This document shows, one piece after another, positions 1 to 22,795 of a DNA stretch of 64,000 nucleotides. Made by a program: the position numbers and the translations under genes. Below the pieces are notes generated by a model, which worked only from the letters and a program-made list of their open reading frames with translations, did no database searches and was not told where the DNA came from. Each line of letters opens with the position of its first letter. Within the stretch, counting starts at the first letter, position 1. Location of the stretch: contig NC_088128.1 of assembly GCF_036370855.1 (NCBI RefSeq), positions 420,899-484,898 of the forward strand, in the 5' to 3' direction. The stretch is from Dromaius novaehollandiae. Its lineage: Eukaryota.

Positions 1-171
1 CCCGTCACCCCCCAGTGCCACCCCTGGGTCTCCTGTCCCCCCCTAGTGCCACCCCTGGGTCCCCGTCACACCCTCCGGGTCCCTGTCCCCCTTGTCCTCC
101 CCCCTTTCCACCCCCGGGTGCCCCCCCGACCCCCGTGTCACCCGCGGGTGGCCCCGGCGTTGTCCCCGCAG

Positions 172-369
172 CTGGAGGACCTGGCGGAGGTGCCCGGCTT
201 CAGCGCCGCCACCGTGGCCGCCCTGCTCGAGGTGAGCGCCCGCCCCGCGGGGGGGGGGGGGGGACACGCGGGGAACACCCTGGTGACACCCAGGGACACC
301 CTGGTGACATGCGTCCCCTCCCCCCAGGCCAACCTGCCCGAAGCCCTGGAGTCTCCCGAGAGCCAATAA
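172..369 (+). CDS. 3'-terminal coding exons of an unidentified gene. Exon 172-231, intron 232-327 (gtgagc…ccccccag), last exon 328-369 ending in TAA. Peptide …LEDLAEVPGFSAATVAALLE/ANLPEALESPESQ* has a helix-hairpin-helix-like LxxVPGFxxATVAALL motif
   Basis: Pyrimidine-rich tract plus AG acceptor at 170-171. GAG|gtgagc donor at 231/232. Second acceptor ccccccag|GCC at 326-327. Open frame is continuous with ORF 46..369. Stop overlaps AATAAA. The 96-nt intron is a multiple of 3, so intron retention cannot be excluded. Confidence 0.4.
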   Translation: MEDLAEVPGFSAATVAALLEVSARPAGGGGGHAGNTLVTPRDTLVTCVPSPQANLPEALESPESQ

Positions 370-370
370 A
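365..370 (+). terminator. AATAAA polyadenylation signal overlapping the stop codon, followed by a GT/T-rich downstream element (tgtggtgttttttttgggggg, ~400-425)
   Basis: Hexamer caATAAAg sits immediately at the end of the terminal exon. A U-rich element lies 30-55 nt downstream. Confidence 0.4.
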
Positions 371-425
371 GAGTCGCCCCCGCCCGGACGCCTGGGCCCT
401 CTGTGGTGTTTTTTTTGGGGGGGAA

Positions 426-1500
426 CCATAGAGAGCGGGGTGAAGAGGCACCAGAGGGGCCACGTGCTGGGGACCATAGAGAGGGAGCCACGGGGGGACC
501 ATAGAGATGGGGGCAGTTGCAGGCGGCCCTGTGGTCATAGAGGGCTGGAGGGGGGATGCCAGAGTGTCCCTCTGCCAGGAGGCCATAGAGATGTGCTGGA
601 GCCTGGTCTAGAGGAGCCATGTGACCATAGAGACAGAGCAGAGGGTGTCCCAGAGGGTCGCTCCTCCAGGTGACCATAGAAATGCGCTGGAGCCTGGTCT
701 AGAGGAGCCACCTCACCATAGAGATGAGACACAGAGGGTGACCCAGATGGTCGCTCCTCCAGTGACCATAGAGTTGCTCTGGAGGCTGGTGCAGAGGAGC
801 CATCTGGCCATAGAGATGGAGGTGAGTGTGCTCCAGACAGTCATGCCTCTAGGCGACCATAGAGACGCGCTGGAGGCCGGTCCAGAGGAGCCATCTGACC
901 ATAGAGATGGAGTAGACTGTGTCCCAGATGGTCACTCCTCCAGGTGATCATAGAGACACAGAGGAGGCTGGTCTAGAGGAGCCATCTGACCATAGAGATG
1001 CGGTGGAATGTGTCCCAGATGGTCACTCCTCCAGGCGACCATAGAGTCGCTCCGGAGGCCGGCCCAGAGGAGCCATCTGACCATAGAGACAGAGCACAGG
1101 ATGTCCCAGACGGTCGCTCCTCCAGGCGACCATAGACACGTTCTGGAGGCCAGTCCAGAGGAGCCATCTGACCATAGAGACAGGGGGCAGAGGATGTCCC
1201 AGACGGTCGCTCCTCCAGGTGACCATAGAGACATGCTGGAGGCTGGCCCAGAGGAACCATCTGACCATAGAGATGAGGTGGAGGGTGTCCCAGACGGTCG
1301 CTCCTCCAGGAAACCATAGAGACGTTCCGGAGGCCAGTCCAGAGGAGCCATCTGACCATAGAGACAGGGGCCGAGTGTGTCCCAGACTCACTCTTCCAGG
1401 CGGCCATAGAGACACGCTGGAGGTTGGTCTAGACGAGCCATCTGACCATAGAGATGGGGCAAAGGGTGTCCCAGGCGGCCGCTCCTCCAGGCGACCACGG
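426..1500. repeat. Minisatellite of ~12 copies of a ~90-92 bp unit built from two ~45-bp half-units (…gaccatagagaNNNctggaggcYggtccagaggagccatctgaccatagagaYRg…gtcccagaYggtcRctcctccaggYgac)
   Basis: 'ccatctgaccatagaga' recurs at ~893, 981, 1071, 1161, 1255, 1347 and 1437 (period ~90). 'ccatagaga' recurs every ~45 bp from 426. Confidence 0.85.
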
Positions 1501-4500
1501 AGCTGCGGCGGCAGCACCCAGCCCGCCCCTCCCGCCGCGGCCACTCTGGCCCGCGCTCTCGGTGGCCGGGAGGGGGCGGGGCCTCGGGTGGGCGTTATGC
1601 AAATGAGGGGGCGGGACCCTTGGGGAATCAAGTTGCTCCCGGACACCTGGGCACTCGGACGCCTGGGCCCCTCAGAGAACTGAGTCACTCCCGGACGCCT
1701 GGGCCCCCCGGACACCTGGGCCCCTCCAGAGAGGGAGCGAGGGGCTGGGACAGAGCCCGGACGCCTGGGCCCCTGGGCTGGGGGTCAGGACGCACCCAGG
1801 AGCTGAGCCCTCCCCGGTGCGTGCGGGGCCCAGGCGTCCGGGCACCCCCCTCCCCCCAGTGCAGTCCCCGCTTCTCTCTGCGCAGAGGGCCCAGGCGTCC
1901 GGGAACAGCCCAATTCCCTGAGGGGCCCAGGCGTCCGAGTGCCCAGGGCATCCGGGAGTGACCCTGTCCTTCGAGGGGCCCAGGCGTCCGAGGGGCCCAG
2001 GCATCCGGGGCCGTGGGGGGACCCAGGGGTCGGAGGGGCCCAGGTGTCCGGAGAGGCGGCTGCACAGGGGCACCCGGACGCCTGGGCCCTCTGCGAGCGG
2101 GAATGGGAGGCAGCATCCCCGGACGCCTGGGCCCCCCCGGCTGCCTGGGCCCTTTGGGAACGTCCGAATTCGGATGCCCCGGACGCCTGGGCCCCTCATT
2201 GAATTGGGAGCCCGGACGCCTGGGCCCCTGGGAGAATCAAGTCACTCCCGGACGCCTGGGCCCCTTGGACGCCCCCAGACCCTGGGTCACTCCCCTCCTC
2301 TTGTTCACAGAGGGCCCAGGCGTCCCGGTGCCCCCGTGCAGCCGCCTCTCTGGACGCCTGGGCCCCTCGGATGCCTGGGCCCCTCGCACACGGGCTGAAG
2401 GGGGTCGGCTTGGGGTGGCAGCCGGACGTCTGGGCCCCTCATGTATGGTGGGGGGGGCGGGGGCCTGGGCTCCCCCAGACACCTGGGTCCCTTCGACGGC
2501 CCCAGTCCCCCCCCCCCAAGTCCGAGGGGCCCAGGCGTCCGAGGGGCCCAGGCGTCCGGGACGCCCAGACGTCCAGGCGCCCCCTGAGCCATGGACAGGG
2601 CGGCCCGGACGCCTGGGCCCCTCGAGCACTTCTGCTGCCTGAGACGCCCCCGGACGCCTGGGCCCCTTCCGGACGCCTGGGCCCCTCAGTGAATTGCTTC
2701 GCCCCGGACGCCTGGGCCCCTTGGAGATTTAGGTCTCTCCGGATGCCTGGGCCCCTCGAGCTCCTGGGCCCCGCCGGACGCCTGGGCCCTCCAGAGAGGG
2801 AGCAAAGGGCTGGGCATGGAGCCCGGACGCCTGGGCCCTCTGCCCGCGGGGGGAGGGGTGGCCACTGTTGGAGGGCGCCCGGACGCCTGGGCCCCCCGTA
2901 CATGGGGGCGGGGGGGGGGGGCTGGGGCCATGGGGAGGGGTCTGGCGTCAAGGAAAGGGCCCAGGCGTCCGGGGAAGGGCCCAGGCGTCCGGGAGTGACT
3001 TGATTCTCCCAGGGGCCCAGGTGTCCGAGGGGCCCCATTCTCTCAGGGGCCCAGGCGTCCGGGGTGACCCCCGTCTATGAGGGGCCCAGGCGTCCGGGGC
3101 AAAGCTAGTTCTCCGAGGGGCCCAGGCGTCCGGGTGCCCCCACGCGGCCGCCTCTCCGGACTCCTGGGTCCCCCGGACGCCTGGGCCCCTCACGAAGGAG
3201 CGGGGGGGGTCAGGTGGGGAGCGACTCCAGGACGCCTGGGCCCCTTGGCCGTGGGGAGGGGAGCAGCTAGTGGGGGGTGCCCGGATGCCTGGGCCCCTCG
3301 GACGCCTGGGCCCACTCTAAACGAGGGGAGGGGAGTGACCTGGGGGTGTCTGAGGGGCCCAGGCGTCCGGGCTCTGTCCTCAGCGGCCCTTCCCATAACC
3401 CATGACCCAGGGGCCCAGGCGTCCGGGAGCTACCGGATCCTCTGAGGGGCCCAGGCATCCCGGGCCCAGCCAAGTCTCTGAGGGGCCCAGGTGTCCGGGG
3501 AGACACAAGTCACCATGGGGCCCAGGCGTCCGGGGCACCCGAAGGGCCCAGGCGTCCGGGCTCCATCCCCAGGCCCTCGCTCCCTCTCTGGAGGGCCCAG
3601 GCGTCCGGGGGGCCCAGGCAGCCGAGGGGCCCAGGTGTCCGGGCATGCAGCAGCATTCAGGGGCCCAGGTGTCCGGCTCACCCCCCCCACAACTGCCCCC
3701 AAGGCCCCCCCGGACGCCTGGGCCCCTCCAGAGAGGGAGCGAGGGGCTGGGACAGAGCCCGGACGCCTGGGCCCCTGGGCTGGGGGTCAGGACGCACCCA
3801 GGAGCTGAGCCCTCCCCGGTGCGTGCGGGGCCCAGGCGTCCGGGCACCCCCCTCCCCCCAGTGCAGTCCCCGCTTCTCTCTGCGCAAAGGGCCCAGGCGT
3901 CCGGGAACAGCCCAGTTCCCTGAGGGGCCCAGGCGTCCGAGTGCCCAGGGCATCCGGCAGTGACCCCGTCCTTCGAGGGGCCCAGGAGTCCGAGGGGCCC
4001 AGGCGTCCGGGACGCCCCCTGAGCCATGGACAGGGCGGCCCGGACGCCTGGGCCCCTCGAGCGCCTCTGCTGCCTGAGACGCCCCCGGACGCCTGGGCCC
4101 CTCCCGGATGCCTGGGCCCCTCAGAGAACTGATTCAGTCACTCCTGGACATCTGGGTCCCCGGGACGCCTGGGCCCCTGGGACATGAGGTGAGGTGGGGT
4201 TCGGTTTGGGGGGGCGCCCGGACACCTGGGCCCTTTCCCGGACGCCTGGGCCCCTTGGCAGAACTGGAGCAGCCCTAGACACCTGGGCCCCTCGGACGCC
4301 TGGGCCCCTGGGAGAATCCAGTCACTCCCGGACGCCTGGGCCCCTCACGCACGGCGGGGGGGGGGCAGCGCTTTGGCTGTGTTGTCTGAGGGGCCCAGGC
4401 ATCCGGGGACACTCGAGGGACCGGAGGGCGCAGAGGGGCCCAGGCGTCCGGGCCCCCCCAATAGCTCCTCCACTCCCCCCCCCCACACACAGGGGGCCCA

Positions 4501-7500
4501 GGTGTCCGGGCGCCCACCCCCCATTGCCCCCTGCATGGAGGGGCCCAGGCGTCCGGGGGACCCAAACCTCCGAGGGGCCCAGGCGTCCGGGCCCTTCCCT
4601 CCCCCCCCCCAACCAAGCTGACCCGAACGACCCCCGGACGCCTGGGCCCCTCACAGAGAAGTTGGGGGGGGGGCAGTGCTCGGGCTGTGCTGTCCGAGGG
4701 GCCCAGGCGTCCGGGGACACTCGAGGGACCGGAGGGCGCAGAGGGGCCCAGGCGTCCGGGCTCCCTCCCAGCCCCTGGTTCCCTCTCTGGAGGGCCCAGG
4801 CGTCCGGGCACTCCCTGCCCCAGGAACGCCTGGGCCCCTCTGTGCCGGGGGGGGGGGAGTGGAGGAGCCATTGGGGGGTGCTCGGACGCCTGGGCCCCTC
4901 GGAGAGGTGGGACCCCGGGTGCCTGGATCCACTCGGACGCCTGGGCCCCTGGGAGAATCAGGTCGCCCCGGACGCCTGGGCCCCTCGGACACTTGGCTCG
5001 GCCCAGGACGCTTGGGCCCCTTGTTAAATTGGGCCATGCCCGGACGCCTGGGCCCCTCAGACACCCCCAGGTCACTCCCCTCCCCTCGTTTAGAGTGGGC
5101 CCAGGCGTCCGAGGGGCCCAGGCATCCGGGCACCCCCCACTAGCTGCTCCCCTCCCCCATGGCCAAGGGGCCCAGGCGTTCGGGGGACCCAGGAGTCCCC
5201 AAGTTGCTCCCCAGCTAAACCCACATTGGCACGTGTATGGGGGGCCCAGGCGTCCGGGGCCGTGGGGGGGACCCAGACGTGCGAGGGGCCCAGGCGTCCG
5301 GAGCGGGGGGTCCGTGCGGGGGCACCCGGACGCCTGGGCCCCTCGGAGAACTGCCTGTTCCCGGACGCCTGGGCCCCTGGGAGAATCAAGTCACTCCCGG
5401 ACGCCTGGGCCCTTCCCCGGACGCCTGGGCCCTTTGGGAGCCTCCGAATTCAGTTGCCCCGGACGCCTGGGCCCCTCATTGACTTGGGCCCCCGGACGCC
5501 TGGGCCCCTCGTTAGATGGGGCCGTCCCCGGACGCCTGGGCCCCTCGGAGAATCGAGTCACTCTCGGACGCCTGGGCCCTGTGGAGCATTGGGTACCCGG
5601 ACGCCTGGGCCCCTCGGACGCCTGGGCCCCCTCGATGCCCCCGGACGCCTGGGCCCCTGGTCCATGGGGGGAGGGGTTTGGGGCCATCAGGGGAGCCCAG
5701 GCATCCAGGGAAAGGGCCCAGGCATCCGGGAGTGACCTGATCCTCCCAGGGGCCCAGGCGTCCGAGGGGCCCAGGCGTCCGGGAGTGACTTATACTCCGA
5801 GGGGCCCAGGCGTCCGGGAGCAGGCAGTTCTCGGAGGGGCCCAGGCGTCCGGGGGGCCCAGGCGTCCCGGTGTTGCTCCCTAGCTGCCCCCCCCCCACAC
5901 CTGTCCAAGGGGCCCAGGCGTCCGGGGGGAGGGATGGGGGGACGCCTGGGCCCCTGGGACGCCTGGGCCCCTCCGTACAGGGGGCGATGGGGGGGGTGGG
6001 GGGTGCTCGGACGCCTGGGCCCCTCAAAGGACGGGGTCACTGCCGGATGCCCTGGGCACTCGGACGCCTGGGCCCCTCAGGGAATTGTGTTGCTCCAGGA
6101 CGCCTGGGCCCCCCCGGACACCTGGGCCCCACCGATGGCACCAGCCCCCCCCCCGCCATGGACAAGGGGCCCAGGCGTCCGGGGGCTGCAGGCATTCAGG
6201 GGGCCCAGGCGTCCGGCTGCCCCCCCAAGCTGACCCCCTTCAGCCCGTGTGCGAGGGGCCCAGGCGTCCGAGGGGCCCAGGCGTCCGGGGAATCCCAAAG
6301 GGCCCAGGCGTCCGGGGGGGCCCAGGTGTCCTGGAGCAAGAGAATTCACTGAGGGGGCCCAGGCGTCCGGGGGATCCAGGCAATTGGGGATGAACCGATT
6401 CTCCCAGGGGCCCAGGCGTCCTGGTGGGCCCAGCCCCTGTGCGGGGGGCCCGGACGCCTGGGCCCCTCCGGAGCCCCTGGACTGTTGCCACCATGATCGA
6501 AGGGCCCAGGCGTCCGGGGGTGACCTGATCCTCCCAGGGGCCCAGGCGTCCGAGGGTGACGTGATTCTCCCAGGGGCCCAGGTGTCCGGGGAGACCCACG
6601 TGTCGGAGGGGCCCAGGCGTCCGGGAGCAATTCAGTTCTCCCAGGGGCCCAGGCGTCCGAGGGGCCCAGGCGTCCGGACTCCCAATGCTCTACGGGGCCC
6701 AGGCGTCCGGGAGTAGCCAAATCACTGAGGGGCCCAGGCGTCCAAGGGGCCCAGGCGTCCGGGGACGGCCCAGTTCCCCCAGCAGATCCCCCTCGATCCC
6801 CCAGGACGCCTGGGCCCCCTGAACGCCCGGGTCTCCCAGATGCCTGGGCCCCCCAGACACCTGGGCCCCTCGGTGACTTGTGTTGCTCCCGGACGCCTGG
6901 GCCCCTCCCGGACGCCTGGGCCCCTCGGAGGATTAAGTTGCACTCGGACGCCTGGGCCCCTCGGACGCCTGGGCCCCTCGAATCCCGGGGTCCCTGGGAG
7001 AATCAAGTAACTCCCGGACGCCTGGGCCCCTCGGACGCCTGGGCCCCTCGAATCCCGGGGTCCCTGGGAGAATCAACTCCCGGACGCCTGGGCCCCTCGG
7101 AGAATGAGGTCACCCTCGGACGCCTGGCCCCCCCACACCCCCGGACGCCTGGGCCCCTGATGGCCCCTCATGGCAGAGACCACAACCCGAGAGCTGCCCC
7201 CCCCCCCCAACCAGTGCGTGAGGGGCCCAGGCGTCCGAGGGGCCCAGGCGTCCGGGGACGTTCAAGGTACTGGAGGGCGCAGAGGGGCCCAGGCGTCCGG
7301 GGGGCCCCGGCGTCCTGGGGGATCGAGGGGGATCTGCTGGGGGAACTGGGCCGTCCCCGGACGCCTGGGCCCCCGGGAGAATCAGGTGACCCCCGGACGC
7401 CTGGGCCCTTCGAACATGGTGGCAGAACTCCGGGGGCTCCGGAGGGGCCCAGGCGTCCGGGCCCCCCCACAGGGGCTGGGCAGTGCCCGGACACCTTGGC

Positions 7501-9420
7501 CCCCCGGACGCCTGGGCCCCTCAGGGGATCAGGTCGCTCCCGGACGCCTGGGCCCCCTTGGTGAATTAGGTCTCCCAGGACGCCTGGGCCCCTCGGACGC
7601 CTGGGCCCATCAGACACCCAGGCTCCCCCACCCCGCCATGGACGAGGGGCCCAGGCGTCCGGGCGCCCCCCAACAGCGGACACCCCTCCCCCCATGCGCA
7701 GAGGGCCCAGGCGTCCGGGGCACCCGAAGGGCCCAGGCGTCCGAGCTCCCTCTCTGGAGGGCCCAGGCGTCCGGGAGGGGCCCAGGAGCTCGAGGGGCCC
7801 AGGCGTCCGGGGGATCCAGGCAATTAGGGATGAACCGATTCTCCCAGGGGCCCAGGCGTCCTGGTGGGCCCAGCCCCCGTGTGGGGGGCCCGGACGCCTG
7901 GGCCCCTCCGGAGCCCCTGGACTGTTGCCACCATGATCGAAGGGCCCAGGCGTCCGGGGGTGACCTGATCCTCCCAGGGGCCCAGGCGTCCGAGGGTGAC
8001 GTGATTCTCCCAGGGGCCCAGGTGTCCGGGGAGACCCACGTGTCGGAGGGGCCCAGGCGTCCGGGAGCAATTCAGTTCTCCCAGGGGCCCAGGCGTCCGA
8101 GGGGCCCAGGCGTCCGGGGACGGCCCAGTTCCCCCAGCAGATCCCCCTCGATCCCCCAGGACGCCTGGGCCCCCTGAACGCCCGGGTCTCCCGGATGCCT
8201 GGGCCCCCCGGACACCTGGGCCCCTCGGTGACTTGTGTCGCTCCCGGACGCCTGGGCCCCTCGGAGGATTAAGTTGCACTCGGACGCCTGGGCCCCTCGG
8301 ACGCCTGGGCCCCTCGAATCCCGGGGTCCCTGGGAGAATCAACTCCCGGACGCCTGGGCCCCTCGGAGAATGAGGTCACCCTCGGACGCCTGGGCCCCCC
8401 ACACCCCCGGACGCCTGGGCCCCTGATGGCCCCTCATGGCAAGAGACCACAACCCGAGAGCTGCCCCCCCCCCCCCCAGTGCGTGAGGGGCCCAGGCGTC
8501 CGAGGGGCCCAGGCGTCCGGGGACGTTCAAGGTACTGGAGGGCGCAGAGGGGCCCAGGCGTCCGGGGGGCCCCGGCGTCCGGGAGACCCGGGCGTTCGGG
8601 GGCCCAGGCGTCCTGGGCGATCGAGGGGGATCTGCTGGGGGAACTGGGCCGTCCCCGGATGCCTGGGCCCCCGGGAGAATCAGGTCACCCCGGACGCCTG
8701 GGCCCTTCGAACATGGTGGCAGAACTCCGGGGGCTCCGGAGGGGCCCAGGCGTCCGGGCCCCCCCACAGGGGCTGGGCAGTGCCCGGACACCTTGGCCCC
8801 CCGGACGCCTGGGCCCCTCAGGGGATCAGGTCGCTCCCGGACGCCTGGGCCCCTGGGAGTATTGGGTACTTGGACGCCTGGGCCCCTCGGACGCCTGGGC
8901 CCATCAGACACCCAGGCTCCCCCACTCCGCCATGGACGAGGGGCCCAGGCGTCCGGGCGCCCCCCAACAGCGGACACCCCTCCCCCCATGCGCAGAGGGC
9001 CCAGGCGTCCGGGGCACCCGAAGGGCCCAGGCGTCCGAGCTCCCTCTCTGGAGGGCCCAGGCGTCCGGGGGGCCCAGGAGCTCGAGGGGCCCAGGCGTCC
9101 GGGAGGGGCCCAGGCGTCCGGGGGCGTCTCAGGCAGCAGAGGCGCTCGAGGGGCCCAGGCGTCCGGGCCGCCCTGTCCATGGCTCAGGGGGCGTCCCGGA
9201 CGCCTGGGCCCCTCGGACGCCTGGGCCCCTCCCCCAACTGCCTCGTGCCCGGACGCCGGGGCCCCTCAGAGGACTCAGTTGCTCTCGGACGCCTGGGCCC
9301 CCCGGACGCCTGGGCCCCTCAGGAAACTCGGTCGCCCCCAGGACGCCTGGGCCCTTCCAACATGGCGGCGACAGGCCAGGGGCTCCTGAGGGGCCCAGGC
9401 GTCCGGCCCCCCCCCCCCGG
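1500..9420. repeat. GC-rich complex satellite (~7.9 kb, ~200 copies) built on the core GGGGCCCAGGCGTCCG(G) and its reverse complement CCGGACGCCTGGGCCCC. Spacers are variable (20-40 bp) and the two orientations occur in alternating blocks
   Basis: Direct reading: blocks of 'cggacgcctgggcccct' (e.g. 1620-1780, 2080-2290, 4190-4330, 5320-5660, 6880-7160) alternate with blocks of 'ggggcccaggcgtccg' (e.g. 1830-2060, 2930-3130, 3350-3660, 5690-5880, 6250-6780). Proline/glycine-rich ORFs here are compositional artefacts. Confidence 0.9.
6365..9110. repeat. Higher-order repeat (HOR) inside the GC satellite. A ~1.3-1.45 kb block is present at least twice (6365-7800 and 7805-9110, with indels). Further HOR copies are 1735-1960 = 3733-3960 and 2560-2700 = 4000-4140
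   Basis: Near-identical stretches at fixed offsets: 6365-6720 vs 7805-8110 (offset 1440), 6878-7160 vs 8225-8440, 7207-7330 vs 8478-8600, 1735 vs 3733 (offset 1998). Confidence 0.6.
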
Positions 9421-9735
9421 ACGCCGGGGCCCCTCGCGGACGCCTCCAGCCCCGGCCGCGCCGCCGCGCGTCTGCGCCCCGGCGGCCCCTCAGCGCGCCC
9501 CACCCCTCTCGGCGGCTCCGGCCAATCATCGCGTGCGCCGCGCGCCGACAGCCAATGGGCGCGCGGCGGGGGCGGTGCCGGCGAGGAGGGCGCGGCCAAT
9601 GGGAGCGGAGCGCGGGAAGGCGGCAGCCGCCCCCTCCCCTCCCCCCCCCGCCCGGCTGTGGCGGCGTCGCCGCCGCGTGAGGAGCCGCCGCCGCCATTTT
9701 CTTCCCCCGCGCGAGGAAGCGGCGGGCGGAAGCGG
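9420..9735. promoter_or_regulatory. CpG-island promoter-like element: three CCAAT boxes (9522-9526, 9552-9556, 9596-9600), a GC box GGGGCGG (~9566-9576), a YY1-like GCCGCCATTTT (9688-9700) and two ETS-like CGGAAG/AGGAAG sites (9711-9734). It is TATA-less
   Basis: Motifs read directly from the sequence. CCAAT spacing of 30 and 44 bp is typical of NF-Y multi-box promoters. The element lies exactly between the GC-rich satellite and the G/T-rich array. Confidence 0.4.
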
Positions 9736-11190
9736 AACCGGGTGTTTGGGGCTTTTTCGGGGGGTTTTTGGGGGGCTTTTTCGGGGGGGGCGGTTGGGGG
9801 CTTTTCCTGGGGGGTTTTGGAGGTTTTGGGGGGCTTTTTCGGGGGGGTTGGGTCTTTTTCTGGGGGGGTTTTGGGGGCTTTTTCTGGGGGGTTTGGGGAC
9901 TTTAGGGGGCTTTGGGGGGGCTTTTTCGGGGGGGTTTGGTGGTCTTTTTCTGGGGGGGGTTGGGGGGTCTTTTTCTGGGGGGTTTTTGGGGGCTTTGGGG
10001 TTTTTTTTTCCGGGGGGGCTTTGGGGGTCTTTTTCTGGGGGGGGTTGGGGGCTTTTTGTGGGGGGGGTTGGGTCTTTTTCTGGGGGGGTTTGGGGGGGCT
10101 TTTTCTGGGGGTTGTGGGGGCTTTGGAGGGGCTTTTTCCGGGGGGGGGTTTTGGGGGGTCTTTTTCTGGGGGGGTTTGGGGGCTTTTTCTGGCGGTTTTG
10201 GGGGCTTTGGGGGGGCTTTTTCCGGGGGGTTTTGGGGGTCTTTTTGTGGGGGGGGGGTTGGGGGCTTTTTGTGGGGGGGTTTGGGGGGGCTTTTTCTGGG
10301 GCTTTTGGGGGCTTTTGGGGGGCTTTTTCTGGGGGGGGTTGGGGGGCTTTTTCTGGGGGGGGTTGGGGGGTCTTTTTCTGGGGGGGTTTGGGGGGCTTTT
10401 TCTGGGGGTTTGGGGGCTTTTTCTGGGGGGTTTTGAGGGGCTTTTTTTGCGTTTTGGGGCTTTTTCGCGGGGGTTTTGGGGGCTTTTTGGTGTTTTCAGG
10501 GGTCTTTTTCTGGGGGGGTTTTGGGGTCTTTTTCTGGGGGGGTGGGGGCTTTTTCTGGGGGATTTTGGGGGCTTTTTGGGGGGGTTTGGGGCTTTTTTGG
10601 GGGGTTTGGGGGGCTTTTTCGTGGGGGTTTTGAGGGCTTTTTGGGGTTTTTGGGGGGTCTTTTTCTGGGGGGGATTTTGGGGTCTTTCTGGGGGGGTTGG
10701 GGCTTTTAGGGGGTTTTGTGGGGCTTTTTCTGGGGGACTGGGGGCTTTTTTGGGGGGTTGGGGGCTTTTTTGCGGGGGTTTTGGGGGCTTTTGGGGGTTT
10801 TCGGGGGGGCTTTTTGAGGGTTTTGGAGGCTTTTTCGGGGCGGGGGGTTGGGGGGTCTTTTCCTGGGGGGGTTTTGGGGGGCTTTTTCTGTTTTTTTGGG
10901 GGGGGGCTTTTTCTGGGGGCGGTTGGGGGGCTTTTTTCCCCAGGGGGTTTTGGGGGCTTTTTCTGGGGATTTTGGGGCTTTCTCTGTTTTTTTGGGTTTT
11001 TTTTTCTGGGGGGTTTTGGGGGGCTTTTTCTGGGGGGGGGTTGGGGTCTTTTTCTGGGGGTTTTGGGGGTTTTGCAACTTTTTTTGTGAGTTTTACAATT
11101 TGGGTCTTTTTCTAGGTGTTTGTTGAGGCTTTTCTCTAGTTTTTTGGGGGGAGTTTCTAGGGTTTTGGTGACTTCTTACTACTTTTCTTT
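9735..11190. repeat. Degenerate G/T-rich tandem repeat (~27-30 bp unit, GGGGGCTTTTTCTGGGGGGGTTTTGGGGG-like). It is dense in G4-forming G-runs on the + strand
   Basis: Runs of 4 or more G separated by T-rich loops throughout. The ORFs 8426..10633 and 8479..11115 are stop-free artefacts. Confidence 0.85.
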
Positions 11191-14100
11191 GTGGCTTTTT
11201 CTAGGTTTTTGGGGGGGGCTTTTTTCCCCGTGGTTTTTTTGGCATTTTTTTCCCCCCGCGGTTGTTTTTTTTGGGGGCTTTTTTCCCCCCGCGGTTGTTT
11301 TTTTTGGGGCTTTTTCCCCCCGCGGTTGTTTTTTTTTGGGGGGCTTTTTCCCCCCGCGGGTGTTTTTTTTGGGGCTTTTTCCCCCCGCGGTTGTTTTTTT
11401 TGGGGGGCTTTTTCCCCCCGCGGTTGTTTTTTGGGGGGGCTTTTTTCCCCCACGGTTGTTTTTTTTGGGGCTTTTTTCCCCCACGGTTGTTTTTTTTGGG
11501 GCTTTTTTCCCCCACGGTTGTTTTTTTTGGGGGCTTTTTTCCCCCACGGTTGTTTTTTTTGGGGCTTTTTTCCCCCACGGTTGTTTTTTTTGGGGCTTTT
11601 TTCCCCCACGGTTGTTTTTTTTGGGGGCTTTTTCCCCCCCGCGGGTGTTTTTTTGGGGGCTTTTTCCCCCCACGGTTGTTTTTTTTGTGGCTTTTTCCCC
11701 CCGCGGTTGTTTTTTTTGGGGGGGCTTTTTTCCCCTGCGGTTGTTTTTTTTGGGGGCTTTTCCCCCCCGCAGTTTTTTTTTGGGGGGGCTTTTCCCCCCC
11801 GCAGTTTTTTTTTGGGGGGGCTGTTCCCCCCCGCGGTTGTTTTTTTTTTGGGCTTTTTCCCCCCGCGGTTGTTTTTTTTGGGGGCTTTTTCCCCCACGGT
11901 TGTTTTTTTTGGGGCTTTTTCCCCCCGCGGTTGTTTTTTTTGGGGGCTTTTCCCCCCCCGCGGTTGTTTTTTTGGGGGGCTTTTTCCCCCTGCGGTTGTT
12001 TTTTTTGGGGCTTTTTCCCCCCGCGGTTGTTTTTTTTGGGGCTTTTTCCCCCCCGCGGTTGTTTTTTTTGTGGCTTTTTCCCCCCGCGGTTGTTTTTTTT
12101 GGGGGCTTTTTCCCCCCGCGGTTGTTTTTTTGGGGGCTTTTTCCCCCCGCGGTTGTTTTTTTGGGGGCTTTTTCCCCCCGCGGTTGTTTTTTTGGGGGCT
12201 TTTTCCCCCCGCGGGTGTTTTTTTTTGGGGGGCTTTTTCCCCCCGCGGTTGTTTTTTTTTGGGGCTTTTTTCCCCCCGCGGTTGTTTTTTTTGGGGCTTT
12301 TTCCCCCCGCGGTTGTTTTTTTTGGGGGCTTTTTCCCCCCGCGGTTGTTTTTTTTGGGGCTTTTTCCCCCCGCGGTTGTTTTTTTTGGGGGGCTTTTTCC
12401 CCCCCGCGGTTGTTTTTTTTGGGGGGCTTTTTCCCCCCCGCGGTTGTTTTTTTGGGGGCTTTTTCCCCCCGCGGTTGTTTTTTTGGGGGCTTTTTCCCCC
12501 CACGGTTGTTTATTTTGGGCTTTTTCCCCCCGCGGTTGTTTTTTTGGGGGCTTTTTCCCCCCGCGGGTGTTTTTTTTTGGGGCTTTTTTGCCCCGCGGGT
12601 GTTTTTTTTTGGTGCTTTTTCCCCCCGCGGTTGTTTTTTTGGGGGGCTTTTTCCCCCCGCGGTTGTTTTTTTGGGGGGCTTTTTCCCCCCGCGGTTGTTT
12701 TTTTGGGGGCTTTTTCCCCCCGTGGTTGTTTTTTTTGGGGCTTTTTCCCCCCGCGGGTGTTTTTTTTGGGGGCTTTTTCCCCCCGCGGTTGTTTTTTTTG
12801 GGGGCTTTTTCCCCCCGCGGTTGTTTTTTTGGGGGCTTTTTCCCCCCGCGGTTGTTTTTTTTGGGGGCTTTTTCCCCCCGCGGTTGTTTTTTTGGGGGCT
12901 TTTTCCCCCCGCGGTTGTTTTTTTTTGGGGCTTTTTCCCCCCGCGGTTGTTTTTTTTGGCGGCTTTTTCCCCCCGCGGTTGTTTTTTTTGGGGGCTTTTT
13001 CCCCCCGCGGTTGTTTTTTTGGGGGCTTTTTCCCCCCGCGGGTGTTTTTTTGGGGGCTTTTCCCCCCCGCGGTTGTTTTTTTTGGGGGCTTTTTCCCCCC
13101 GCGGTTGGTTTTTTGGGGGGGCTTTTTCCCCCCGCGGTTGTTTTTTTTGGGGGCTTTTTCCCCCCGCGGTTGTTTTTTTGGGGGGCTTTTTCCCCCGCGG
13201 TTGTTTTTTTGGGGGCTTTTTCCCCCCCGCGGTTGTTTTTTTGGGGGCTTTTTCCCCCCGTGGTTGTTTTTTTGGGGCTTTTTTCCCCTGCGGTTGTTTT
13301 TTTTGGGGGCTTTTTCCCCCCGCGGTTGTTTTTTTTGGGGGCTTTTTCCCCCCGCGGTTGTTTTTTTGGGGGGCTTTTTCCCCCCGCGGTTGTTTTTTTG
13401 GGGGGCTTTTTCCCCCGCGGTTGTTTTTTTGGGGGCTTTTTCCCCCCCGCGGTTGTTTTTTTGGGGGCTTTTTCCCCCCGTGGTTGTTTTTTTGGGGCTT
13501 TTTTCCCCTGCGGTTGTTTTTTTTGGGGGCTTTTTCCCCCCGCGGTTGTTTTTTTTGGGGGCTTTTTCCCCCCGCGGTTGTTTTTTTGGGGGGCTTTTTC
13601 CCCCCGCGGTTGTTTTTTTTGGGGCTTTTTTCCCCCCGCGGGTGTTTTTTTTGGGGGCTTTTTCCCCCCGCGGTTGTTTTTTTTGGGGCTTTTTCCCCCC
13701 GCGGTTGTTTTTTTGGGGGGCTTTTTCCCCCCGCGGGTGTTTTTTTTGGGGGCTTTTTCCCCCCGCGGTTGTTTTTTTTGGGGGCTTTTTCCCCCCGCGG
13801 TTGTTTTTTTTGGGGGCTTTTTCCCCCCGCGGTTGTTTTTTTTGTGGCTTTTCCCCCCCGCGGTTGTTTTTTTTGGGGCTTTTCCCCCCGCGGTTGTTTT
13901 TTTTGGGGCTTTTCCCCCCGCGGTTGTTTTTTTTGTGGCTTTTTCCCCCCGCGGTTGTTTTTTTTGGGGGCTTTTTCCCCCCGCGGTTGTTTTTTTTGGG
14001 GGCTTTTTCCCCCCGCGGTTGTTTTTTTTGGGGGCTATTTTCCCCCCGCGGTTGTTTTTTTTGTGGCTTTTCCCCCCCGCGGTTGTTTTTTTTGGGGCTT

Positions 14101-14615
14101 TTCCCCCCGCGGTTGTTTTTTTTGGGGGCTTTTTCCCCCCGCGGTTGGTTTTTTTGGGGGGCTTTTTCCCCCCGCGGTTGTTTTTTTGGGGGCTTTTTCC
14201 CCCCGCGGTTGTTTTTTTTTTGGGCTTTTTCCCCCCGTGGTTGGTTTTTTTGGGGGGCTTTTTCCCCCCGCGGTTGTTGTTTTTTGGGGCTTTTTCCCCC
14301 CGCGGTTGTTTTTTTTTTGGGCTTTTTCCCCCCGTGGTTGGTTTTTTTGGGGGGCTTTTTCCCCCCGCGGTTGTTGTTTTTTGGGGCTTTTTCCCCCCGC
14401 GGTTGTTTTTTTTGGGGGCTTTTTCCCCCCGCGGTTGTTTTTTTTGGGGGCTTTTTCCCCCCGTGGTTGTTTTTTTGGGGGCTTTTTCCCCCCGCGGTTG
14501 TTTTTTTGGGGGCTTTTTCCCCCCGCGGTTGTTTTTTTGGGGGGCTTTTCCCCCCCGCGGTTGTTTTTTTGGGGGTTTTTTCCCCCCTGTTTTTTTTTTC
14601 TTGCAGCTTTTTCCC
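11190..14615. repeat. Highly regular tandem array of ~106 copies of the 31-33 bp unit GGGGGCTTTTTCCCCCCGCGGTTGTTTTTTTT. Each unit contains a G5/C5-6 hairpin (GGGGG-CTTTTT-CCCCC) and a CGCGG core
   Basis: The period-31 register is visible in the raw sequence (e.g. GGGG at 11467 and 11498). The ORF-track ORFs of 1187, 1259, 1343 and 448 (minus strand, lysine-rich) aa are artefacts of a stop-free repeat, because 31 is not a multiple of 3. Confidence 0.95.
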
Positions 14616-14619
14616 CTGT

Positions 14620-15293
14620 GGGTTTTTTCCTACTCAGGATGTGCTGCCCAGGTCTTTTTTGTTGTCTTTTTCATCTTGGCTGAGTATTCTCTCCTCACAG
14701 TCATGGCCTATGACCGCTACATTGCCATCTGCAGACCCCTGCACTACGGGACCCTCATGGGCAGCAGAGCTTGTGTCAAAATGGCAGCAGCTGCCTGGGC
14801 CAGTGGTTTTCTCAATGCTCTCCTGCACACTGCTAACACATTTTCAATACCACTCTGCCAAGGCAACACAGTGGAGCAGTTCTTCTGTGAAATCCCCCAG
14901 ATCCTCAAGCTCTCCTGCTCAGACTCCTACCTCAGGGAAGTTGGGGTTCTTGTGGTTGGAATTTGTTTAGTCTTTGGGTGTTTCATTTTCATTGTGCTGT
15001 CCTACGTGCAGATCTTCACTGCTGTGCTGAGGATCCCCTCTGAGCAGGGCCGGCACAAAGCCTTTTCCATGTGCCTCCCGCACCTGGCCGTGGTCTCCCT
15101 ACTCCTCAGCACTGTCATGTTTGCCTACCTGAAGCCCCCCTCCCTCTCCTCCCCATCTCTGGATCTGGTGGTGGCTGTTCTGTACTCGGTGGTGCCTCCA
15201 GCAGTGAACCCCCTCATCTACAGCATGAGGAACAAGGAGCTCAAGGAGGCACTGAAGAAACTCGGTCAGTTGGCACTGTTTCAGCAGCAGTAA
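14620..15293 (+). pseudogene. OR unit 1: 5'-truncated olfactory receptor (family 14 / gamma-c-like). Only TM3-end to C-terminus is retained (…SYSGCAAQVFF…MAYDRYIAICRPLHYG…KAFSMCLPHL…NPLIYSMRNKELK…*). The N-terminal ~95 codons are replaced by the 31-bp array
   Basis: Homology to the intact paralog (58116-59051) begins at ~14620 and runs to stop TAA at 15291-15293. No ATG or TM1-TM2 is present. The frame runs straight on from the satellite (ORF 11262..15293). Confidence 0.85.
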
Positions 15294-15504
15294 GCTGCCC
15301 ATCTCTCCTCACAAGTGATTTCCAAGCAATCTCTGGGAACATTTGTGGTTTGGGCATTCTCTCTGTGATGAACGTGTTTGTTCACAAATGTCTGAATTCA
15401 TCTCTCTTCTCCAGAGGTACAAACCCCGTCTCTCTGACCCAGAGGCCTTCCCTAAATCTACCGATCCCTGTCTCAGAGCTGGCCTCCCTTGCAGCATCTC
15501 TGTA

Positions 15505-15510
15505 ATAAAA
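15505..15510 (+). terminator. Candidate poly(A) signal AATAAA in the conserved OR 3' flank, ~213 nt after the stop. The same 'ctctgtaataaaagggg' is found after unit 2 (~23007) and, reverse-complemented, after unit 4 (~57908)
   Basis: The hexamer and its context are conserved in three of four OR units. Confidence 0.3.
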
Positions 15511-15602
15511 GGGGATTTCATCAGTACCCTGCCTGAAGGTTGGGCTTTTCTTCCAAAGCTGGGGCCAAAAACGTGCTCAGGGAATTGCACCTGAAAAGGC
15601 CC

Positions 15603-16432
15603 TGTTGCTGTGCCTGGGTTTTCCATGGGCTAAGGGGGATGTGCTCATAGGGTGATGTGTGAGGGAATGAGGGCTGGATTCAGCCCTCACTTGTGCGTGT
15701 CAGTGGCCCAGGAGAGGGTGAGTGCCCAAGCGGTGTCTGCTGGGGACTGTCTCAAATATTAGAGGGCTGGTGAGAGATGCCCATCCTTCTGCAAGGGAGT
15801 ATGGAGCCACCAGAAGAGCACAAGAGATCTCCAGGGACAGCATGTGCCTGGGATGGGCAGTGAGTGGAGACTCCCAAAGCCAAGTGGAGTCACCCATAGA
15901 TGAAGGGCCAAACCAAGGAATGCACCACATCAGGGCTCTGCAGTCTCAGGAGAGGCAGTGGGGACTCATCCAGCACAGGGAAGGCAGCCGCAAGAACGGT
16001 TCATGTCACATACAGTGAAAACCCATGGCTGGATCTAATGATGCACCTGACCCCATCCTGAGCCATTTGAGATGCCTTGTGATTGCTCTGAGCACCCTCC
16101 ACAGCCACAGACCCTGGGGAGCGGCTTGTCAGGCGCAGTGATGCTGGGCCAGCCGGGTCTGCCCTGACCAGCACGACCAGCGTGGAGTCACCCCGGGGCC
16201 CCACAGCTGCTCACTCTGCAGAGCAGCACCACCAGCCCGGGGAGCACAGCAGAGGGGTGCAGGAATGGCCGGTGAGGCCAGCACAGACACACTGATCAGA
16301 GGAAAGGCTCTCTGGAGAATAGGGATGTCTCTCGAGAAGAGCAAAGGAACAATTGTGGGCTTGCAGGGAGGAATTAATGAAAACCTGTTTCTATGTGTGT
16401 CAGCTCAGGACAGGCTGCTCTGTCACTGGACA
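15603..16432. repeat. Direct-repeat copy A (~830 bp) in the OR 3' flank. It has homologs within the window at 17396..~18260 (copy B, same orientation), 23105..23935 and 24898..~25760 (copies in unit 2), and, in inverted orientation, 33640-34700 and ~57000-57740
   Basis: Shared stretches include 'tgttgctgtgcc[tg]ggttttccatgggctaagg', 'tctcaaatattagagggctggtga', 'caaaccaaggaatgcaccacatcagggctctgcagtctcaggagagg' and 'tgctgggccagccgggtctgccctgaccagcacg'. Confidence 0.6.
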
Positions 16433-16589
16433 CTTTTACTAACCGAATCTATTCATTGTATCATATTTCCTCGTTCCTTCCCTTTCCTTTAAGCGTTTTC
16501 CAGTTTCCAACAGATGTTGAGTAACCTTGGTGTTCTGTCTGAGAAAGCTGTTGAGTTGATGGAAGGTTACTCCAAGTGGTACTGATATA

Positions 16590-16967
16590 TTAAATGGATC
16601 CAAACAAAGCCATCGTTTGTTCAGTCATATGAGAAGTTAACCAGTAAGTCTGCGTGGCGATTTGGTCAAAAACATAGGTCACATTACAACGGCTTTTGTT
16701 GCCTTCCATGTCTGTAGTACCCATCTCTATTGTCATAACCAGGTGCAGCTTCCCATCCCGTGTGTTATTACATATAGCTACCTTTAGAGTAACGTTAGAT
16801 CTTAGGGTCAGTGTAACATTATGGCCTACTATCAGTCCTTGACCTTGTGCTAATGATACAGATGGTATTTCTCTTGTAACTATAGTTTTAAAGATGGGTT
16901 GTGACTGATCTTCAATAACCAAGTTGTCCCATGGGCAACGTGAAAAGGCAGAACCTGTTAGAGGCAC
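16590..16967 (-). other. 125-aa ORF encoding a glycoprotein-like fragment with six N-x-S/T sequons (NVTLTLRSNVTLKVAICNNTRDGKL…NKSRCNVTY). It sits between direct repeats A and B and is of unknown origin
   Basis: The ORF lies within a ~960-bp insert (16432-17396). The extended minus-strand reading (…GSPIEKGVVSVAACIPAKTERKPYQSPGDEVVVKHPTQGSIWVTVLFYHGKGVRDAVD…) is broken by stops. I could not assign it to a known family. Confidence 0.25.
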
Positions 16968-17395
16968 ATTTCAGGTGTTTTTTTCCAGTTATCAGTGTCC
17001 CCACGGTTAGCAGCTAACACCACACTTCCCTGCAAGTGAAGACACCTAGGTCTTGGACATAATCCAAGCCTCATTTATGGTTAACTTGCTCTCTTCAGTG
17101 TCTACAGCATCCCGTACTCCTTTTCCATGGTAAAAGAGCACAGTCACCCATATTGATCCCTGAGTTGGATGTTTAACCACAACCTCATCTCCAGGACTTT
17201 GATAGGGTTTTCTTTCTGTTTTAGCAGGAATTCATGCAGCTACTGACACAACCCCCTTCTCTATGGGACTTCCTGTGGGAGTTTGTCGCTTATTTAGCCA
17301 ACTTTCTACTTCCCACAAATGGGATCCCCACTTAGAAGTAATCTAAAAAGAAGAGTCACTGTTGCTTCTGTCATCCACTCCATCTTTCTACTGCC

Positions 17396-18260
17396 TTGTT
17401 GCTGTGCCAGAGTTTTCCATGGGCTAAGGAACATGAGCTCACAGGGTGGTGTGTTAGGGAATGTCAGATGGATTCAGCCCTCCCTTGTGGGGGCCCAGTG
17501 ACCCTGAGGATGGTGAGCGGTAAAGAGGTCTCTGCTGCGGAGTGTCTCAAATATTAGAGGGCTGGTGACAGATGCCATCCTTCTGGAAGGGAGTATGGAA
17601 CCACTAAGAGAGCACAGGGCATCTCCAGGGGCAGTTTGTGCCTGGAGTGGGCAGTGAGTGGAGACTCCCCAAACCAAGTGGAGTCACCCAGAGGAAAGGG
17701 CCAAACCAGGGAATGCACCAAATCAGGGCTCTGCAGTCTCAGGAGAGGGAGTGGGCTGGGTCTAAGGACACACCTGAGCCATTGGAGATGGCCTGTGATT
17801 GCTCCAAGCATCCTCCACAGCCACAGACCCTGGGGAGGGCTTGTCAGGTGCAATGATGCTGGTCCAGCTGGATCTGCCCTCACCAGCACGGCCAATGCGG
17901 AGTCATCCCGGGGCCATACATCCTGCTTGCCCTGCAGAGCAGCACTGCCAGCCCAGCGCCCTGCAGGGAGCACAGGGCAGGGGTGCAGGAACGGCCAGAC
18001 CAGCATGGACACACACCTGGGGAAAGGCTCTCTGGGGAGCAGGGATGTCTCCGGAGAAGAGCAAAGGAACAATTGTGTGCTTGTGGGGAGGAATAAATGA
18101 AAACCTGTTTCCGTGTGTGTCAGCTCCGGGCAGGCTGCCCTGTCACTGGAGCTGCCTGAGGAGCCCCGGGGCCAGGACTCTTGTGCTGTGCTGGGGAGAG
18201 GGGCTGCCCAGAGGGGCTGCAGGCAGCCAGGGTTAAGGATCTCTGGTCGTGAGAGCAGGG
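17396..18260. repeat. Direct-repeat copy B (paralog of 15603-16432). It extends further than copy A at its right end
   Basis: See copy A. The stretch 18152-18260 still matches the inverted copy at 33830-33925, which copy A lacks. Confidence 0.55.
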
Positions 18261-19449
18261 GAGACATGGAGCGCCTGGCCTCCATTTCCTTGGGCCATTG
18301 CTGGCCCCCAGGTGTGGGGCTGATGGGGAGGCTGACACCCCTCTCTGCCCCCCAGCAGCTGCTGTGCCCTGCAGAGGGGCTGGGGCTGTGGGGTGAGTGC
18401 CCCGAGCTCTGCAGCCCCCTGCGGTGGGCACTGCTGTGGGGCCATCCCAGCCTGGTCTGCTGTGCTGGGTGGGCTGGGGAGAGGGCAGGGGAGGTGGGGA
18501 GAGCTGGGGAGGGTCTGGTCTGGTCTGGAAAGGGCCTGGGAGAGGCAAAATGCCAGCAGGCAGCTCCCATGCATGAATGGTGCCCAGAGCATGGGGAGGA
18601 AACTGGGGCAAAGACCCCTGCCCTCAGCTGCATGGCTGGGGCACTCGACAGGCGATGCCTTTGTGGGTGGCCAGGCTCCAGGTTCGGAGCAGATGCCAGG
18701 TCGAAGGCAGGAGCACTGGGACTGTGGTGAAGGCAAGTGGGCAGGCAGAGCCAGGCACACGCAGCTGCAAAGGCTGCCTTTGGAAAAGGCAGTGTGGGGC
18801 TGGTGAAGGCCCTCCCTCTCCTCCCCATGGGGAAGAGAGTCCCCAGGCAATGCTGGACTCTGCTTTGGCTGACAGGAAGGGAGCACAGGGCAGGGTGGAA
18901 GAGGCAGATGGAGCCTCTCCCGATGCATGAGGGAGTTTTCCAAAGCCCGGGGCTGAGCCAGGCACCTTTGGATCTTCCCCCCAACACTCTCCCAACCAGG
19001 CTCATTTTTCCCTGCCCTAGGTGCTCTCATCCCCCTGCCAGCCATGCCAGAGCAGAGGTTGAGGAGCAAGAGTTCATGGAGTGGCAGAGGAGTTTTGGTG
19101 GGAAGGGACCTCTGGAGGTCTCCAGCCAACCTCCCACATAAAGCAGGGCTGGTTGGAGCCCTACAGACTTCTCTGGTGATTGCTGGACTGTGCCTGACCC
19201 TGGTTACCATCCCCAAACCTGCTCTGCTCTTTTTTTCCAGGCACTGGGGGATGGCACCTCCCGTTGGGGCACTGTCCTGCCTGCCTTGCCGGCACCCTCG
19301 GCATTTTGAAGGGGCATGCTTTTCCTGTAGCTGTCATGCTGTATGTGCTGGAGACACCTCCTGTGTATTTGTGGGGTTCACAGGAGGGATCAGAATCCCA
19401 CTCCAGCCCAGGGGCTTCTAAACAGGCATGTGATGTCCAGATTGACTCA

Positions 19450-21996: not shown

Positions 21997-22795
21997 ATGT
22001 CCAACAGCAGCTCCCTCAATGAGTTCCTCCTCCTGGCGTTCACAGACACATGGGAGCTGCAGCTCTTGCACTTCTCACTCTTCCTGGGCACCTACCTGGC
22101 TGCCCTCCTGGGCAACGGCCTCATCATCACAGCCGTAGCCTGCGACCACCACCTCCACACCCACTGTCTTTTTGTTAGGAGGAGAGTATTCTCTCCTCAC
22201 AGTCATGGCCTATGACCGCTTTGTTGCCATCTGCAGACCCCTGCACTACGGGACCCTCATGGGCAGCAGAGCTTGTGTCAAAATGGCAGCAGCTGCCTGG
22301 GCCAGTGGTTTTCTCAATGCTCTCCTGCACACTGCTAACACATTTTCAATACCACTCTGCCAAGGCAATGTTGTGGACCAGTTCTTCTGTGAAATCCCCC
22401 AGATCCTCAAGCTCTCCTGCTCAGATGCCTACCTCAGGGAAGCTGGCCTTGTTGTGGCTAGTGTTTGTTTAGTTTTGGGGTGTTTTGTTTTCATTGTGCT
22501 GTCCTACGTGCAGATCTTCACTGCTGTGCTGAGGATCCCCTCTGAGCAGGGCCAGCACAAAGCCTTTTCCATGTGCCTCCCGCACCTGGCCATGGTCTTC
22601 CTCTTCATCAGCACCTCAGTTTTTGCTTATCTGAAGCCCCCCTCCCTCTCCTCCCCAGCTCTGGATCTGGTGGTGGCTGTTCTGTATTCAGTGGTGCCTC
22701 CAGCAGTGAACCCCCTCATCTACAGCATGAGGAACAAGGAGCTCAAGGATGCCCTGAGGAAACTCGTTCAGTTGGTACCATTTCAGCAGCAGTAA
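21997..22795 (+). pseudogene. OR unit 2: OR14/gamma-c-like gene with an internal 137-bp deletion (junction ~22160-22185). TM2, ECL1 and the start of TM3 are removed and the frame shifts, so it is a pseudogene
   Basis: ATG at 21997 (MSNSSSLNEFLLLAFTDTWELQLLHFSLFLGTYLAALLGNGLIITAVACDHHLHT…). It then jumps to …EYSLLTVMAYDRFVAICRPLHYG…NPLIYSMRNKELKDALRKLVQLVPFQQQ*. Length is 799 bp vs 936 bp for the intact paralog. Confidence 0.85.

Follow-up and report, generated by a model that had tools for sequence, protein, structure and literature searches.

Organization of the core array

The 64-kb window analysed here (the whole stretch of DNA, 64,000 nucleotides) is vertebrate, not microbial, and carries several OR14-type olfactory-receptor genes and fragments of such genes. 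At the edge of the OR14 cluster, with the 3′ end of a GC-rich gene on its left and a CpG island on its right, lies the subject of this work, a 7.8-kb array of the short core GGGGCCCAGGCGTCCG, which occupies positions 1656-9433 and is present on both strands. The array starts beyond the poly(A) signal of the GC-rich gene (AATAAA, 366-371) and ends at the CpG island (9434-9747), and no gene model spans it. Its GC content is 74%.

In the window, 116 exact copies of GGGGCCCAGGCGTCCG were found, against 0 expected from 100 shuffles. Allowing one mismatch raised the number to 186 and allowing two raised it to 201, every one of these within 1656-9433. The original prediction, which spoke of about 200 cores, therefore stands when one or two mismatches are allowed, but not for exact copies. 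One additional core with a single mismatch was located outside the array, at 385-400 on the minus strand, 14 bp past the AATAAA signal and next to a run of T. The 201 cores are divided almost evenly between the strands (98 plus, 103 minus) and are grouped into 41 runs of like orientation, each comprising 1-12 copies, where approximately 101 runs would be expected at random (z = -8.6). The blocks of opposite polarity that had been described for this region are thus real features of the sequence.

The consensus of the core family in the window is GAGGGGCCCAGGCGTCCGGG, and copy-by-copy inspection revealed a conserved stretch of approximately 18-20 bp, (G)AGGGGCCCAGGCGTCCGGG. Identity among the copies is ~97%, a value partly capped by the two-mismatch limit of the search, and 14 internal core positions are nearly invariant. 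Within core positions 2-15, 31 of the 46 substitutions are CpG transitions, mainly at the first CpG. This dominance of CpG transitions is the signature of methylation-driven deamination. CpG dinucleotides are dense in the array (7.2 per 100 bp vs 1.2 across the remaining window), with an observed/expected ratio of 0.52; the ratio is 0.41 for spacers taken by themselves, 1.13 for the adjoining CpG island and 0.16 for the remaining window. As far as sequence can tell, the core variants and the ratio of 0.52 fit methylated repeat DNA in decay and turnover. The idea that the array is a methylation landmark is likewise consistent with the dense CpG and the CpG-transition variants of the core. The accompanying claim that GGGCCC and CCGG sites occur in every copy was too broad, since CCGG is present in roughly four-fifths of the copies; over the 7.8 kb, 213 GGGCCC and 170 CCGG sites were counted.

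Cores account for 41% of the array bases, and the spacers between them vary in length from 1 to 87 nt. Core-to-core intervals range from 17 to 103 bp with modes at 17 bp (n = 33) and 35-36 bp (n = 48), the dominant units being a 17-mer (core plus one base) and a ~36-mer (core plus a 20-nt spacer). The 20-nt spacers are mutually related, with a consensus near GGAGTGACTTGATTCTCCCA, but 27 of the 35 are distinct, and their mean pairwise identity is 0.56, compared with 0.26 for random sequence. Tandem Repeats Finder detected only short local arrays of 2-19 copies, with periods of 17, 33-36, 52-55 and 69-70 and 59-90% matches. Hence, none of the hallmarks of a classical tandem satellite or minisatellite was found in the array: the copies of one unit do not follow each other head to tail, orientation is mixed, and homogenization does not extend over whole units, the core being far better conserved than the 20-nt spacers. 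This agrees with the earlier view that the array is not a simple satellite.

On a larger scale, the array reuses its own sequence. With a minimum module length of 60-80 bp and a minimum identity of 90%, 67-75% of the array recurs within the array, direct copies covering 52-59% and inverted copies 33-47%. The reused modules measure 60-500 bp, in direct as well as inverted form, and duplicates of at least 200 bp cover 42% of the array. Because modules are reused in both orientations, the array is a mosaic and not a regular satellite. From 6200 to 9103, a block of 1.3-1.45 kb occurs approximately 2.2 times in tandem, its copies being 88-99% identical. Copy A (6200-7645, plus strand, ~1446 bp) displays the orientation pattern + - + - + - + -, which is repeated identically in copy B (7646-8939, plus strand, ~1294 bp), followed by a partial third copy (8940-9103, plus strand). 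The eight orientation switches that copies A and B have in common must consequently be older than the duplication of the block. Furthermore, a 306-bp module at 1704-2009 recurs at 3706-4011, also on the plus strand, with 97.7% identity and an offset of 2.0 kb. The proposed higher-order duplication on a scale of 1.3-2.0 kb therefore exists, but covers only part of the array, and approximately 2.2 copies of one block together with one 306-bp pair do not constitute a higher-order repeat of the alpha-satellite type.

Inverted repeats are frequent. We counted 28 inverted pairs with arms of 24-43 nt separated by no more than 120 nt, and the pair with the longest arms (172 nt, 80% complementarity) is separated by 333 nt. 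For the switch point at 3225-3385, a single-stranded DNA fold of -49 kcal/mol was predicted (z = -3.7). These values bear out the inverted-repeat potential that had been ascribed to the array. A 148-nt module at 3975-4122 (plus strand) has an inverted copy 5 kb away at 9084-9231 (minus strand), to which it is 99% complementary, and this pair appears to exemplify a recent inverted duplication.

Orientation switches and module duplications of this kind might in principle be produced by long-read mis-assembly across a GC-rich repeat, and GC-rich avian repeats are described as hard to sequence and assemble (PMC6792250; PMC12954441). The two copies of the 1.3-1.45-kb block, however, share all eight switches and yet differ by 1-12%, and the inverted copies, at 80-99% identity, have diverged from each other. 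Both orientations are also seen in the assembly of a pigeon and in a metagenome contig built from short reads, described below. Since the block copies are co-linear but diverged, and independent assemblies contain both orientations, an assembly artefact is very improbable. The suspicion that the orientation blocks are assembly inversions, raised as a caveat beforehand, is unlikely to be correct on the same grounds.

Related motifs in other birds

Metagenome contigs were scanned with the bare 16-mer, and 120 stretches were returned. Nearly all of these matches are single chance occurrences in GC-rich microbial contigs; one contig alone was informative (Ga0065711_1099074, positions 1-1859, hereafter L042). 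This contig is bird host DNA and carries five exons of BCKDK, with 95-96% identity to the rail and sparrowhawk proteins. Two CpG-decayed forms of the core motif, CCTGGATGCCTGGGTCCCC and CCTGGACACCTGGGTCC, fill its introns in both orientations. In total, 21 copies of the motif were found, compared with 0.14 in shuffles, and an intron tandem array of ~72-bp units extends from 960 to 1555. The consensus in L042 is GGGACCCAGGC(G/A)TCC, with GGATGCC and GGACACC as the dominant CpG-decayed variants.

A second occurrence is the VKORC1-BCKDK locus of the speckled pigeon (L125). Here, CCCAGGNNTY occurs 79 times (37 plus, 42 minus), against approximately 2 in shuffles, and the consensus is GGGACCCAGG(C/A)GT(C/T)CGGG. 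The pigeon copies form short tandem arrays with 19-bp and 33-36-bp units, located in introns as well as upstream of promoters. The window consensus and the pigeon form GGGACCCAGGCGTCCGGG agree at all but one of 18 positions. Stretches of the window array align directly to the pigeon arrays at 75-87%. The spacers are unrelated among the window, the pigeon locus and L042, and comparison of the array flanks with the pigeon locus yielded the motif itself as the sole match.

Over-representation of the motif in L125 and L042 places the core in a dispersed avian motif family. Judged by these comparisons, the core is a lineage variant of a motif family dispersed in GC-rich bird DNA and present in at least three bird sources, and the array is an oversized cluster of this dispersed avian repeat, not a one-off satellite. 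One short core thus recurs at several loci while the remainders of the units differ, as in core-sharing minisatellites. The original prediction had considered that the core might be a fragment of a known interspersed repeat; this applies in part, as the core does belong to a dispersed, though not demonstrably catalogued, family. When the searchable literature was queried for the motif strings and variants of them, unrelated PCR primers were the only matches, and no description of the repeat emerged.

The motif was not found in the BCKDK contigs of flycatcher, parrot, hummingbird and rail. The parrot and hummingbird contigs are short, and the latter is gappy, consisting of 42% N, so absence of the motif from these two is weak evidence. 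Likewise, no core copies were present in the kiwi and cassowary receptor loci (L123, L001), in the Logan contig L002 or in the other 49 kb of the window, GC-rich parts included.

Origin of the array and conservation of the core

According to PMC6792250, the introns and flanks of "hidden" avian genes are full of GC-rich tandem repeats. A study from 2026 (PMC12954441) coined the term "sequence stuttering" to denote imperfect repeats that have expanded locally within introns on the dot chromosomes of chicken; their mechanism was given as unknown and a local origin was presumed. Such repeats, as described, resemble the array in several respects: it is very GC-rich, imperfect and locally expanded in units of tens to hundreds of bases, it lies near or in GC-rich genes, and it is hard to describe as a clean satellite. 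The GC content of 74% and the 60-500-bp modules that cover 67-75% of the array at 90% identity or more match the published picture of stuttering, and the BCKDK intron arrays of L042 and L125 fit the description of stuttering and hidden-gene repeats directly.

We lean, with modest confidence, towards reading the array as a GC-rich minisatellite of compound build, of the type known from avian "sequence stuttering", that would have no dedicated function. Its source would be a lineage variant of the dispersed short motif GGGRCCCAGGYRTCCGGG. Replication slippage and unequal exchange would multiply the short 17- and 36-bp units, and segmental duplication would copy the 60-500-bp modules and the single 1.3-1.45-kb block. 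Fold-back or template switching, or else recombination between opposed cores, may give rise to inverted duplications and inversions and so to the orientation mosaic. Persistence of the core would then reflect molecular drive, because the core is the element that is propagated. The array is best filed with the GC-rich avian repeat expansions or with the core-sharing minisatellites. It is unusual as a structure, and the unexpected part is the shared, near-invariant core.

Several points weigh against this account. As published, stuttering repeats are direct, local (sometimes derived from a neighbouring exon) and intronic, whereas the array is 7.8 kb long, apparently intergenic and of mixed orientation. 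Neither a shared core nor mixed orientation is mentioned in the searchable text of PMC12954441 and PMC6792250. An origin confined to the locus does not apply either, since the core family is also found in L125 and L042. At the same time, the distribution of the motif is patchy, or else hidden by short-read assemblies and dependent on the assembly. When recent duplicates within the array were pooled, cores differed by 1.7% and spacers by 4.4% (p = 2e-4). The greatest difficulty is how differently core and spacers are conserved. A near-invariant core of 14-16 bp beside 20-nt spacers of 56% identity would not be easily explained by purely neutral turnover, and the same holds for a core, but not spacers, common to window and pigeon at 17 of 18 positions; both are to be expected of a protein-binding site.

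The chief rival is accordingly an array of binding sites, with the core as the putative 16-18-bp recognition site of a sequence-specific protein, for instance a multi-zinc-finger protein; a motif of this length suits five or six zinc fingers. Approximately 200 sites facing both ways would provide a high-avidity platform, which may act as a boundary, as a nucleation site for heterochromatin or methylation, or as a clustering element, and which would separate the GC-rich gene and the CpG island from the olfactory-receptor cluster. A conserved box embedded in variable sequence is what the array contains: 14 internal positions vary little, and mostly by CpG decay, while the spacers vary in both length and sequence. 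That the core is conserved between a palaeognath-like window and pigeon without its spacers, and that the pigeon copies adjoin promoters and occupy introns of housekeeping genes, point the same way. However, comparison by eye with the consensus sequences of CTCF, EBF, AP-2, PLAG1 and HINFP gave partial matches at best, the decayed forms GGATGCC and GGACACC of L042 suggest that the exact sequence is not kept everywhere, and the 49 kb of the window without copies include GC-rich parts. The lower divergence of cores in recent duplicates, which would also favour binding, depends on two poorly aligned pairs with partly non-homologous spacers. After these were dropped, cores differed by 2.0% and spacers by 2.9% (p = 0.29). 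With the difference lost, there is no strong evidence of ongoing purifying selection on the core, and the evidence for such constraint is weak. All considered, we regard a binding-site array as a serious but rather unlikely explanation.

Dispersal of the motif over unrelated loci and species would also be expected if the core were derived from a transposable element, either as a terminal or subterminal repeat or as an internal fragment (of a foldback element, a miniature inverted-repeat transposable element, a tRNA-derived short interspersed element (SINE) or the primer-binding site of an endogenous retrovirus), and the array consisted of such elements nested in each other or expanded internally. 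The opposed blocks of short repeats recall the long inverted termini of foldback elements, but we saw no discrete or recurrent boundaries of elements, no target-site duplications accompanying terminal inverted repeats and no whole elements in repeated form; the modules are heterogeneous, and single isolated cores exist (for example at 385-400). The 9-mer TCCCGGACG is common to the core and the 3′ end of tRNA-Pro, but this match comprises just 9 nt and has a post hoc p of ~0.05. Neither in the window nor in L125 and L042 did ARAGORN detect anything resembling a tRNA, and Rfam, searched at the gathering threshold and at a relaxed E-value, gave no tRNA match even at E of 1-5 or less; no Rfam family was assigned in the 64-kb window. 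Sub-threshold Rfam matches at the orientation switches, to families of GC-rich miRNA hairpins, were treated as generic hairpins. A search with a 398-aa translation of the array found no match among predicted proteins, hence the repeat is nowhere annotated as protein. Descent from a transposable element is thus a quite unlikely source of the core. The more specific origin from a tRNA, a SINE or a retroviral primer-binding site for tRNA-Pro was rejected as unsupported by ARAGORN, by Rfam and by the 9-nt match.

Other known systems share individual traits with the array. Human minisatellites of the Jeffreys type have in common, at many GC-rich loci, a G-rich core of 10-16 bp, whereas the remainder and the length of the unit differ; they are associated with recombination-prone GC-rich regions, and the classical ones are head to tail and homogeneous at each locus. 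The array is similar in its short shared core and differing remainders, but its units differ outside the core within one locus and its orientation flips 40 times. The CENP-B box of alpha and minor satellite and the CTCF-site macrosatellites have a known binding protein and regular head-to-tail monomers. Akin to these, the array keeps a short box of the size of a protein site in otherwise variable repeats; unlike them, it is irregular in spacing and orientation. Opposed blocks of short repeats with a conserved core, variable spacers and strong hairpin potential are found in the Drosophila FB foldback transposons and in bacterial REP/BIME sequences. Here, the resemblance, which concerns opposed conserved-core blocks and variable spacers, is architectural only: no termini, target-site duplications or associated transposase were seen in the array, and BIMEs are bacterial.

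We consider it unlikely, though worth stating, that GGGRCCCAGGCGTCCGGG is an ancient cis-element of the palaeognath-like bird and of neognaths, serving as the binding site of a conserved sequence-specific protein or as a preferred substrate of replication or recombination, that it seeds and drives the GC-rich stuttering expansions typical of avian microchromosomal DNA, and that the array in the window is an extreme outgrowth of it. If this were true, stuttering expansions would share a sequence cause and would not have purely local origins. Of all parts of bird genomes, GC-rich microchromosomal DNA is the one understood least, and its repeats explain "missing" genes and assembly gaps. A core that hardly differs between pigeon and a palaeognath-like bird, and that forms two-way arrays by CpG islands and in introns, would be a concrete handle on repeat instability: one could search whole genomes for it, assay it for bound proteins and compare its positions with methylation and recombination. 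Should the array be a by-product of slippage only, it is still useful as a mark of a domain boundary and as a demanding case for assemblers, but would be no functional discovery.

Sequences surrounding the array

The last two exons of the GC-rich gene lie on the plus strand at window positions 1-371 and encode LEDLAEVPGFSAATVAALLE and ANLPEALESPESQ, the latter followed by a stop. They show a weak helix-hairpin-helix match under the Pfam cut-off. Between this gene and the core array, and directly to the left of the latter, a satellite with a 91-bp unit extends from 575 to 1497 (~10 copies, 80% matches, also a period of 456 bp), in which GACCATAGAGA recurs. The left boundary of the array (1500-1655) contains GC boxes, the octamer ATGCAAAT at ~1598-1605 and, at ~1640-1655, a first degenerate core; with these elements it may be promoter-like.

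At the right boundary, the CpG island (9434-9747, plus strand) has a GC content of 81% and contains three plus-strand CCAAT boxes, the YY1-like site GCCGCCATTTT and CGGAAG ETS-like sites. The island resembles a promoter of the housekeeping type, and it may function as one. A scan for bacterial promoters and terminators, a type of scan not applicable to a eukaryote, found nothing in the island. Downstream of it, satellites only were found. An octamer and a AAAATGGCGG site also occur beside the pigeon arrays (L125 ~1290-1400); homology to the octamer and the YY1-like site of the window was not shown.

From 9748 to 11074 a G/T-rich repeat with units of 21-25 bp, such as TGGGGGGGTTTGGGGGCTTTTTC, was observed; it is strongly asymmetric between the strands (GC skew +0.68, AT skew -0.94), and its plus strand is prone to form G-quadruplexes. 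It is followed at 11247-14616 by a 32-bp satellite, TTTTTCCCCCCGCGGTTGTTTTTTTTGGGGGC, in 106 copies with 92% matches, the plus strand of which almost lacks A. PMC11036779 lists a satellite of emu whose unit measures 31 bp. The emu satellitome paper and its supplement report 24 GC-rich satellites, the sequences of which are not printed, and no link to the array was made. Because three other satellites (91-bp, 21-25-bp G/T-rich and 32-bp) flank the array, the whole interval is repeat-prone; it borders GC-rich genic DNA on one side and the receptor cluster on the other.

The 32-bp satellite abuts and truncates an OR14-type receptor gene at its 5′ side, homology starting at 14626 (approximately codon 90). 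Within the receptor cluster, a tandem segmental duplication of ~7.5 kb (14600-27500) contains one receptor gene fragment per copy and near-identical pairs of open reading frames at 15071-15505 and 22573-23007, and at 16590-16967 and 24092-24469. An intact receptor of 311 aa, encoded at 58116-59051 on the minus strand, is closest to emu, kiwi and cassowary receptors, with identities of up to 92%, and non-coding stretches of the cluster can be aligned at 83-92% to a locus on a kiwi chromosome and to a contig of cassowary. The window is accordingly DNA of a palaeognath-like bird. Look-ups for an identical protein, made for the receptor gene of the window and for three emu receptors, found no recorded entry.

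In pigeon, the space that separates the motif arrays from the VKORC1-like promoter contains, at 1700-2560 of L125, a distinct G-rich tandem repeat of ~850 bp resembling GGGGGTCTATGTGGGTCTGGGGG. This is a further stuttering-type sequence at the VKORC1-BCKDK locus.

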